Shown here: piece after piece, positions 24,966-27,893 of the stretch
Layout: the number at the start of each line of letters is the position of its first letter
Numbering within the stretch: position 1 is the first letter of the stretch
From: Eledone cirrhosa
Taxonomy: Eukaryota
DNA: 64,000 nucleotides
Assembly (NCBI GenBank): GCA_964016885.1
Contig: OZ024749.1
Span: 22,258,001 to 22,322,000 of the forward strand
Direction of reading: 5' to 3'
Translations under genes and position numbers: made by a program
Notes under the pieces: generated by a model
The model's database searches: none
Seen by the model: only the letters and a program-made list of their open reading frames with translations
What the model was told of the DNA's origin: nothing

Positions 24966-27893
24966 AAGTTGTAATAAAATGAAAACGAAATTTCATTTCT
25001 CACTCTTAGTACGGCACTTACTTAAATGTAAGTATGTATGTATACGTACATACATATATGTATACAGACGTACAGTAGCAGGCATATATATATATATATA
25101 TATATATATATATATATACACATATATACATACAGGTACACATACATATATGTACGTATCAGTTTAGCGGACGCTTATTATAGCGCCCGCTTTGTTCGTT
25201 TGTAAACAAACTGAACAGCCTGAATTTATGCCGTACGGTGTTAAGGCAACCACGTCACCTTTTTGTTCAACACTGACACAGGAACGATGTACTAGTTTCA
25301 AGCTTGTTAGCTATCATCAGCATCGTATACCCTTCTGCCAGATGGTTGAACGTTCGAAAGTATATACTTTCCTTATGAAAATTAACGGCTGAGCAGCCTA
25401 ATTTGCATATCGAGTGAGTCCGGCCAGGCGTACCGAGAACGACAAGTTGTAATAAAATGAAAACGAAATTTCATTTCTCACTCTTAGTACGGCACTTACT
25501 TAAATGTAAGTATGTATGTATACGTACATACATATATGTATACAGACGTACAGTAGCAGGCATATATATATATATATATATACACATATATACATACAGG
25601 TACACATACATATATGTACGTATCAGTTTAGCGGACGCTTATTATAGCGCCCGCTTTGTTCGTTTGTAAACAAACTGAACAGCCTGAATTTATGCCGTAC
25701 GGTGTTAAGGCAACCACGTCACCTTTTTGTTCAACACTGACACAGGAACGATGTACTAGTTTCAAGCTTGTTAGCTATCATCAGCATCGTATACCCTTCT
25801 GCCAGATGGTTGAACGTTCGAAAGTATATACTTTCCTTATGAAAATTAACGGCTAAGCAGCCTAATTTGCATATCGAGTGAGTCCGGCCAGGCGTACCGA
25901 GAACGACAAGTTGTAATAAAATGAAAACAAAATTTCATTTCTCACTCTTAGTACGGCACTTACTTAAATGTAAGTATGTATGTATACGTACATACATATA
26001 TGTATACAGACGTACAGTAGCATGCATATATATATATATATATATATATATATATATATATACACATATATACATACAGGTACACATACATATATGTACG
26101 TATCAGTTTAGCGGACGCTTATTATAGCGCCCGCTTTGTTCGTTTGTAAACAAACTGAACAGCCTGAATTTATGCCGTACGGTGTTAAGGCAACCACGTC
26201 ACCTTTTTGTTCAACACTGACACAGGAACGATGTACTAGTTTCAAGCTTGTTAGCTATCATCAGCATCGTATACCCTTCTGCCAGATGGTTGAACGTTCG
26301 AAAGTATATACTTTCCTTATGAAAATTAACGGCTGAGCAGCCTAATTTGCATATCGAGTGAGTCCGGCCAGGCGTACCGAGAACGACAAGTTGTAATAAA
26401 ATGAAAACGAAATTTCATTTCTCACTCTTAGTACGGCACTTACTTAAATGTAAGTATGTATGTATACGGTACGCCTGGCCGGACTCACTCGATATGCAAA
26501 TTAGGCTGCTCAGCCGTTAATTTTCATAAGGAAAGTATATACTTTCGAACGTTCAACCATCTGGCAGAAGGGTATACGATGGTGATGATAGCTAACAAGC
26601 TTGAAACTAGTACATCGTTCCTGTGTCAGTGTTGAACAAAAAGGTGACGTGGTTGCCTTAACACCGTACGGCATAAATTCAGGCTGTTCAGTTTGTTTAC
26701 AAACGAACAAAGCGGGCGCTATAATAAGCCTCCGCTAAACTGATACGTACATATATGTATGTGTACCTGTATGTATATATGTGTATATATATATATATAT
26801 ATATATATATATATATATATATATATATATATATATATATATATATATATATATATATATATATATATATATATATATGCATGTTACTGTACGTCTGTAT
26901 ACATATATGTATGTACGTATACATACATACTTACATTTAAGTAAGTGCCGTACTAAGAGTGAGAAATGAAATTTCGTTTTCATTTTATTACAACTTGTCG
27001 TTCTCGGTACGCCTGGCCGGACTCACTCGATATGCAAATTAGGCTGCTCAGCCGTTAATTTTCATAAGGAAAGTATATACTTTCGAACGTTCAACCATCT
27101 GGCAGAAGGGTATACGATGCTGATGATAGCTAACAAGCTTGAAACTAGTACATCGTTCCTGTGTCAGTGTTGAACAAAAAGGTGACGTGGTTGCCTTAAC
27201 ACCGTACGGCATAAATTCAGGCTGTTCAGTTTGTTTACAAACGAACAAAGCGGGCGCTATAATAAGCGTCCGCTAAACTGATACGTACATATATGTATGT
27301 GTACCTGTATGTATATATGTGTGTATATATATATATATATATATATATATATATATATGCATGCTACTGTACGTCTGTATACATATATGTATGTACGTAT
27401 ACATACATACTTACATTTAAGTAAGTGCCGTACTAAGAGTGAGAAATGAAATTTCGTTTTCATTTTATTACAACTTGTTCTCGGTACGCCTGGCCGGACT
27501 CACTCGATATGCAAATTAGGCTGCTCAGCCGTTAATTTTCATAAGGAAAGTATATACTTTCGAACGTTCAACCATCTGGCAGAAGGGTATACGATGCTGA
27601 TGATAGCTAACAAGCTTGAAACTAGTACATCGTTCCTGTGTCAGTGTTGAACAAAAAGGTGACGTGGTTGCCTTAACACCGTACGGCATAAATTCAGGCT
27701 GTTCAGTTTGTTTACAAACGAACAAAGCGGGCGATATAATAAGCGTCCGCTAAACTGATACGTACATATATGTATGTGTACCTGTATGTATATATGTGTA
27801 TATATATATATATATATATATATATATATATATATATATGCATGCTACTGTACGTCTGTATACATATATGTATGTACGTATACATACATACTT
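24966..27893. repeat. Retrozyme-like tandem array R2 (464-540-bp units) arranged as a 2.9-kb inverted repeat
   Basis: About 3.1 units in one orientation, a switch at about 26467, then about 3 units inverted; hammerheads on - at 25284-25326, 25748-25790, 26228-26270 and on + at 26576-26618 (C3G), 27114-27156, 27591-27633. Confidence 0.92.

Follow-up and report, generated by a model that had tools for sequence, protein, structure and literature searches.

The segment at positions 24966-27893 of the window, by which we mean the whole 64,000-nt stretch of DNA analysed here, raises the question of how a repeat that encodes no protein came to be laid out as two divergent arms within a microsatellite. 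We found that both arms are built from a ~470-nt repeat and are bounded by (TA)n tracts, as listed below, with unit position 1 assigned to the base that follows the hammerhead's predicted GUA cut.

24817-24965: left (TA)n target tract
24966-26468, minus strand (hammerhead sense): left arm of 3.17 units with its inner end at unit position 246 (26468)
24966, minus strand: 3' end of the left arm at unit position 326, the long ("tail") end, abutting (TA)n
24966-25028, minus strand: Penelope-type tail, unit positions 264-326, additional terminal sequence present only at the long end
26467-26468: 5'-to-5' inversion junction, a 2-nt CG overlap of the arms
26467-27893, plus strand: right arm of 2.85 units with its inner end at unit position 335 (26467)
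27893, plus strand: 3' end of the right arm at unit position 263, the short end, against (TA)n
27894-27986: right (TA)n target tract

Together the arms amount to 6.0 unit lengths, which comprise four full cut-to-cut monomers (480, 464, 538 and 477 nt) and four partial pieces. The units vary in their (TA)n tracts, which are 20-94 nt long, and otherwise by nine substitutions at eight sites and one 3-nt deletion. The earlier note on this DNA had described near-identical tandem units that differ mainly in (TA)n length, and both points hold. It had also called the array a 2.9-kb palindrome; the divergent arms joined 5'-to-5' agree with this, but the palindrome is imperfect, as the arms are asymmetric with inner breaks at unit positions 246 and 335 and outer ends at 326 and 263. 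The substitution 211A>C is present in two of the six units, both of them outer left units, and no A>G is common to all units of the array. Since the arms are unusually long for the family, in which only 10 of 206 arms reach three units, and since 211A>C is confined to some units, one unit may be a later duplication.

The array has no reading frame of at least 120 aa except one at 24754-25167, which is made largely of the flanking TA tract, and the reverse transcriptase (RT) and GIY-YIG reading frame of Penelope-like elements (PLEs) is absent from it. Its ends adjoin (TA)n and there are no LTRs; because both flanks are (TA)n, a target-site duplication would be unreadable. An Rfam scan of the whole window at the gathering threshold gave no match. 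Next to the right flank lies a tandem array of ~92-nt units (28007-28451). Elsewhere in the window we noticed LINE-type frames on the minus strand at 53156-56386, with an AP endonuclease match at 55280-56386, and a 241-aa frame at 59062-59787 with a weak C2H2 zinc-finger match. A second insertion of the same family is also present:

34963-36015: older two-armed insertion with divergent arms in (TA)n, 80-85% identity including gaps

All six hammerheads that the earlier note had quoted, each with a 6-bp stem I, were located in the array at the following positions.

25284-25326, minus strand: type I hammerhead, core intact, predicted cut between 25290 and 25289
25748-25790, minus strand: type I hammerhead, core intact, predicted cut between 25754 and 25753
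26228-26270, minus strand: type I hammerhead, core intact, predicted cut between 26234 and 26233
26576-26618, plus strand: type I hammerhead, C3>G at 26582, core predicted inactive
27114-27156, plus strand: type I hammerhead, core intact, predicted cut between 27150 and 27151
27591-27633, plus strand: type I hammerhead, core intact, predicted cut between 27627 and 27628

Five cores are intact, as had been claimed, and the sole defect is the C3>G at 26582; a C3G mutation abolishes hammerhead cleavage in the PLE study PMC11167929. A loose hammerhead core pattern matched 21 times in the window, with 1.69 matches expected. The window also contains another dispersed repeat (23495-24176, 47093-47377 and 49110-49746) with a hammerhead-like CTGAAGA...GAAA motif, a long stem II and ends in (TA)n. 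Each ribozyme of the array family has a 6-bp helix I, a 4-bp helix II and a helix III made of the 6-nt palindrome ACUAGU, which is the metazoan type I design as defined in PMC4209133 (6-bp helix I, 4-bp helix II, short palindromic helix III). Position 10.1-11.1, however, is U·U in place of the canonical G10.1-C11.1 pair, which PMC4209133 describes as highly conserved. The earlier note had pointed out neither this position nor the palindromic nature of helix III.

When the monomer circle was folded, the pair probabilities were 0.58-1.0 for helix I, 0.9-1.0 for helix II and 0 for helix III, while two copies of ACUAGU paired as a 6-bp duplex. Because the palindromic stem III is predicted to be unpaired in the monomer, the hammerheads would probably cleave as dimers; hammerheads with a short palindromic helix III need a dimer according to PMC4209133. 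For Xenopus retrozymes, eight of nine dimers are reported to have shown no in vitro cleavage. The circular unit folds with z = -10.9 (-8.4 with the (TA)n trimmed), and its antisense with z = -4.1 (40 shuffles each). Stems I and II covary in a set of 16 sequences from the family and two related ones, which represents mainly two lineages of eight each and was gathered with a search pattern to which the hammerhead core belonged: 95% of 240 cells were paired, six pairs had changed on both sides and the score was reached in none of 500 shuffles. This covariation suggests selection for the fold. Read-through of the array, which the earlier note expected to yield both monomers and long dsRNA, would copy an antisense arm first from either side, so that fold-back of the two-armed transcript may compete with hammerhead folding.

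The 3.0-Gb genome contains 15,261 exact 34-nt cores, against none for the reversed control, and 313 exact young long-end junctions. Units of 454-538 nt were seen, and copies with 98-100% identity lie on many contigs, as would be expected from the earlier note's view of a recent insertion. The array at 24966-27893 is thus a single young insertion of a genome-wide repeat family. Its tandem type I hammerhead units, lack of coding capacity, absence of LTRs and dispersed high copy number are those of a retrozyme, as the note had named it, and by structure the family joins the metazoan non-LTR retrozymes, with cleavage and a circle predicted from its sequence.

Related families are also present, with 1,437 hammerhead cores in the genome. 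An older sister family (L131-L149), ~73-83% alike, has C·A at 10.1-11.1 and a GUU cut site, and a distant 469-nt retrozyme family (L135, L150, L204-L208), ~65% alike over unit positions 173-408, has the canonical G10.1-C11.1 pair. The distant family is also two-armed, and among 10 of its ends four lie at 231-233 and six at 300-305, ~70 nt apart. Four runs labelled as other organisms held pieces of the array family at ~82-100% identity on 2-21 contigs each, which is too thin for a claim on distribution. The family is also present in run X5, and among the runs listed with matches none was identified as RNA, which tells nothing about expression. The octamer ATGCAAAT at unit positions 362-369 (e.g., 25402-25409 on the minus strand) is kept in all related families and belongs to a block of conserved sequence that lies 3' of the long end; it could be a promoter element or a protein-binding site. 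Newt satellite 2 is the source of the idea of an snRNA-type promoter. Such a promoter found no support for the unit: four of 12 U2 loci were without the octamer, and the upstream regions of two of them showed no convincing match to the unit. The U2 snRNA genes themselves number ~40 in tandem at 2.2-kb spacing (G000:C3:307.35-307.45 Mb).

Whether the two-armed layout is peculiar to this locus was answered by the other copies. We assembled an end-anchored sample from 97 of the first 100 listed of the 313 exact long-end junctions, at 93 loci, so that the long end was selected for TA while the short end was unselected. From these a script retrieved 86 insertions. Two arms were present in 48, and the 3' ends faced outward in every one; 47 of the 48 were simply divergent and one was complex. 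In 37 of the 47, the long end at unit position 326 was paired with a short end ~60 nt upstream, at 255-272 and mostly at 263, 266 or 269, where a uniform spread of ends over the 480 nt would place ~2; the combination of two long ends occurred in none of the 47. Some of the other 10 were cut by later insertions, and L104 has the end of a PLE lying directly against the TA tract inside the unit. In a second sample, made up of 40 other loci chosen through a motif inside the unit, all 14 two-armed insertions were divergent, eight had a long and a short end and none had two long ends. Of the remaining six, five had an end at the internal TA tract or beside it, and the sixth was called at 479. The divergent palindrome is therefore the normal insertion form of the family. 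The lengths of the two arms were uncorrelated (52 pairs, rho -0.07).

These recurrences bear on the concern that the palindrome might be a chimeric-read or assembly artefact. The junction at 26467-26468 is bridged by no contig or read among the matches listed, which leaves room for that concern, yet the two arms have different flanks, phases, ends and private variants, and the layout with fixed ends recurs at dozens of loci. Strand-switch joints of the family are also seen in contigs and, for another sample, among the raw short reads, and by our reading a joint at 26435-26591 is found in X1, X3 and X21, the stretch itself flipping at 26467. We consider an artefact highly improbable.

The ends of the retrozyme insertions resemble those of PLEs, whose insertions are described in PMC8557442 as carrying an inverted 5'-truncated copy with the tail at one end only. 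In PMC11167929, a purified PLE protein is shown to cut AT-rich DNA on both strands, to extend each of them and to begin copying at two sites within the RNA, the spacing of which equals the tail. The retrozyme ends have the inverted 5'-truncated arm and the tail at one end in the 37 of 47 and eight of 14 insertions above, and their targets are (TA)n, that is, microsatellite and AT-rich DNA as for PLEs. Two PLE copies lie in the window itself, and their spacing from long to short end was counted from the printed sequence.

3745-5339: 5'-truncated PLE with inverted arm, GIY-YIG frame at 3927-4865, ends 59 nt apart and both in (TA)n
29488-33363 (ends approximate): degenerate PLE with inverted arm, RT frame at 30907-31713 on the minus strand, ends 59 nt apart and both in (TA)n

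The genome also holds a young PLE family, first met in L104 and represented by L240-L253 (e.g., L241:2801-7004, G000:C26:20.70 Mb), for which 137 of 150 scored matches were 100% identical, many of them within a 775-aa RT and GIY-YIG frame (L241:5151-7475). Its 4,204-bp unit has a 496-aa upstream frame, with no Pfam family, that overlaps the 775-aa frame in another phase, and both tandem and two-armed copies occur in (TA)n. All 10 two-armed insertions that were retrieved pair a short with a long end, at 1006-1010 and 1061-1073, a point difference being allowed for in two of them. Like that of the retrozyme unit, the hammerhead of this PLE combines U·U at 10.1-11.1 with a palindromic helix III of 6 nt. 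In L242 (6871-6883), the plus arm of one PLE insertion starts at most 3 nt from the predicted hammerhead cut (unit 884) and had crossed another hammerhead without stopping; this is a single case with a 3-nt overlap.

The earlier note had likened the tandem-plus-inversion layout to that of the nearby PLEs and had proposed mobilisation by a PLE. The likeness is borne out by the long/short tail of the window PLEs, which is 59 nt in length, and the proposal gains from a two-site tail common to the retrozyme, the window PLEs and the intact young family. As the fixed two-site 3' ends follow the tail pattern of PLEs, we regard PLE-type two-site mobilisation of the retrozyme family as very probable. 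The data further suggest that PLE inversions arise by priming at both ends of one break, with one start site per strand.

An origin at the DNA level, in which the repeat spread as a satellite with no RNA step, either through recombination driven by hairpins or through rolling-circle replication of DNA in (TA)n, would draw on a unit that is rich in hairpins and contains a (TA)n tract itself, and later duplications do exist. It would nevertheless leave unexplained why each insertion has one each of two fixed 3' ends, as in protein-coding PLEs, and also the strand-specific A>G skew described below, and we consider it very unlikely.

As for the enzyme that would have acted in PLE-type mobilisation, the young intact PLE is a candidate driver, one that shares no sequence with the retrozyme: comparison of the unit with the terminal repeats of three PLE families (the two in the window and the young one) gave only TA or 9-14-mer matches. 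A partner may be found among the other PLE families of the genome. The related-hammerhead pattern (1,437 matches) led to sister retrozymes only: among 20 loci sampled, none had a hammerhead attached to a PLE frame and one contained a separate PLE fragment; a promoter-like pattern, mis-spaced for the distant family, gave seven matches and no PLE. In L104 (G000:C1:295.168 Mb), the young PLE is inserted in the internal (TA)n of a retrozyme unit, which indicates that the unit carries its own PLE target.

We then asked which form of the RNA served as template. Among the 206 arms whose 3' end is canonical, 132 continue past the hammerhead cut site, and no inner end falls at positions 468-5; the stop rates flanking the cut site were 0.028 and 0.019 per 20 nt, within the range of 0-0.082 elsewhere. 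We therefore rejected the cut linear monomer as the usual template, which leaves two candidates for it, a circle and an uncut multimer. The missing stop thereby lends indirect support to RNA that ran on through the cut site as the template.

Variants shared between units were surveyed on the hammerhead strand in 215 insertions, a variant being rare if seen in at most five of the 215. The thresholds were chosen after a first look at the data. We dropped one of two duplicated L111 copies and all pieces that were shorter than 35 nt, below 86% identity or wholly inside unit positions 125-258, and further excluded unit positions 160-210 and subfamily-diagnostic sites from the counts. The rare variants common to all covering units (n = 64) comprised 32 A>G vs 5 T>C, and the singleton variants (n = 553) 46 A>G vs 64 T>C; counted by insertion, there were 18 A>G vs 5 T>C (Fisher p = 0.002). 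Thirteen A>G in 10 insertions were present on both arms, and 24 A>G in 12 insertions recurred along one arm in all of its covering units, whereas only 3 T>C, in three insertions, did so. The base 5' of the 32 shared A>G was G in none and U in 22, and a depletion of G at the upstream position is what PMC5625713 gives as the preference of ADAR. The skew of all-unit variants to A>G in an ADAR-like context lends indirect support to reading them as editing-like scars. Under a strict threshold (at most two insertions), A>G vs T>C fell to 10 vs 4 variants and 7 vs 4 insertions (p = 0.19), and the 40 held-out loci alone gave 2 vs 0 of eight. The shared A>G also cluster, with eight of the 32 in L127 and four in L179, and 317A>G, common to three insertions, probably marks a small subfamily.

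Such uniformity along an arm would follow from a circle, from a source that was edited and already homogeneous, or from later duplication. The main competitor of the circle shares the PLE two-site mechanism and places it on an uncleaved linear multimer, the transcript of a tandem array already present, with long arms lengthened afterwards by unequal exchange and the hammerhead slow or active at another stage. The lack of a stop at the cut site fits it equally, and the anole PLE is reported to have mostly used unprocessed RNA, with hammerhead mutants inserting normally (PMC11167929). Variants present in some units only were found in 17 of the 60 insertions with threefold cover, and in L258 one A>G is present in each of the five covering units but two others in only three. 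The insertion L127 (G000:C2:45.654-45.659 Mb), which has an 8.4-unit arm plus an inverted arm and eight all-unit A>G, carries other variants with a four-unit periodicity, and L254 is a mosaic array. The weak 10.1-11.1 pair and the absence of stem III from the monomer point the same way, and a single monomer circle alone would not give 211A>C in only two of the six units at the present locus. On the other hand, editing of a multimer should differ from unit to unit, yet the 24 A>G recur in every covering unit of their arms, and the covariation of the hammerhead stems suggests that the fold is under selection. We thus hold the uncleaved multimer to be possible but rather unlikely as the general template, although later duplication or multimer templates do occur in some insertions. 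A monomer RNA circle is, with moderate confidence, the usual template.

We accordingly favour, again with only moderate confidence, the reading of the array as a young non-LTR retrozyme insertion in which a PLE enzyme copied a probable monomer RNA circle into (TA)n. Tandem units would be transcribed, and the hammerheads would cut the transcript, probably as dimers, whereupon a host ligase would close the ~470-nt monomer, by analogy with coral, mussel and axolotl retrozymes. A PLE protein would cut both (TA)n strands, whose 3' ends would prime inside the RNA at 326 and 263-269; the end pattern is observed, and the enzymology is modelled on the anole Poseidon work. Both cDNAs would pass the hammerhead junction unstopped, as the DNA products show, and would terminate at various positions. 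Head-to-head joining at a short stretch of matching bases would then yield the divergent palindrome, a layout that is observed, and the later changes would be (TA)n slippage, point mutation and some unit duplication, which are also observed. A more detailed version is plausible and falls somewhat short of probable: the insertions would record two PLE reverse transcriptases, primed from either side of one DNA break and following each other ~60 nt apart around a single ADAR-edited circle. The circle would recruit the PLE protein by its shape and not through common sequence, and the intact young PLE would be a source of enzyme for reconstituting the process.

The retrozyme is a known kind of element, and reverse transcription of RNA circles by LINE or PLE enzymes has been proposed for animal retrozymes as a hypothesis. 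What the present genome offers is that this long-assumed copying route becomes testable, by means of three genomic handles: the two-site tail of PLEs on a protein-free element, the missing stop at the ribozyme junction, and the editing-like scars across units and arms. Because the genome also holds an intact and very young PLE, the anole in vitro assay is directly applicable. The locus at 24966-27893 is one among many of its family. In the open-access literature, we found no description of the tail signature or of editing scars in retrozymes, and no paper on ADAR scars in retrotransposon copies.

The family resembles the metazoan non-LTR retrozymes, as far as the available parts of PMC7229834 and 10.64898/2026.07.22.740005 describe them, in its tandem non-coding units of a few hundred nucleotides with GC below 45%, its one type I hammerhead per unit, its thousands of copies without LTR-type ends, its co-occurrence with PLEs and its highly paired predicted circle. 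It differs from them in the U·U at 10.1-11.1, in the internal (TA)n hairpin and in the two-armed insertions with a PLE tail; the word "inverted" has no occurrence in PMC7229834. The unit of 454-538 nt is longer than the 170-400 nt RNAs of that study. The argument of 10.64898/2026.07.22.740005 is built on terminal-repeat homology, in so far as its available part goes, whereas none was found here with the three PLE families. Cleavage and circles are demonstrated for the retrozymes of both sources, while those of the present family are predicted.

Among non-autonomous elements, the closest in habit are the Chlamys PLEs such as MRC1 (PMC8557442, available part), which are likewise multicopy, arranged head-to-tail and dependent on PLE machinery. 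The 3' ends of MRC1-type elements, however, are like those of their autonomous partners, and hammerheads are mostly missing from Chlamys, whereas the retrozyme has a hammerhead and matched none of the three PLE families compared. Unlike the GIY-YIG PLEs, the retrozyme family codes for no protein and has no similarity to the three PLE families tested. Its tail of 57-63 nt is longer than the 30-40 nt given for the cited PLEs, and those of PLEs in the same genome are 59 or ~51-67 nt. The latter PLEs have the C-X4-CxxC linker described for Neptune and Nematis, to which they are likened by this linker alone. With the GIY-YIG PLEs as described in the available parts of PMC8557442 and PMC11167929, the retrozyme family nevertheless shares partial tandems, an inverted 5'-truncated copy, a one-ended tail and (TA)n or AT-rich targets, as well as two internal start sites and a hammerhead upstream of the tail.
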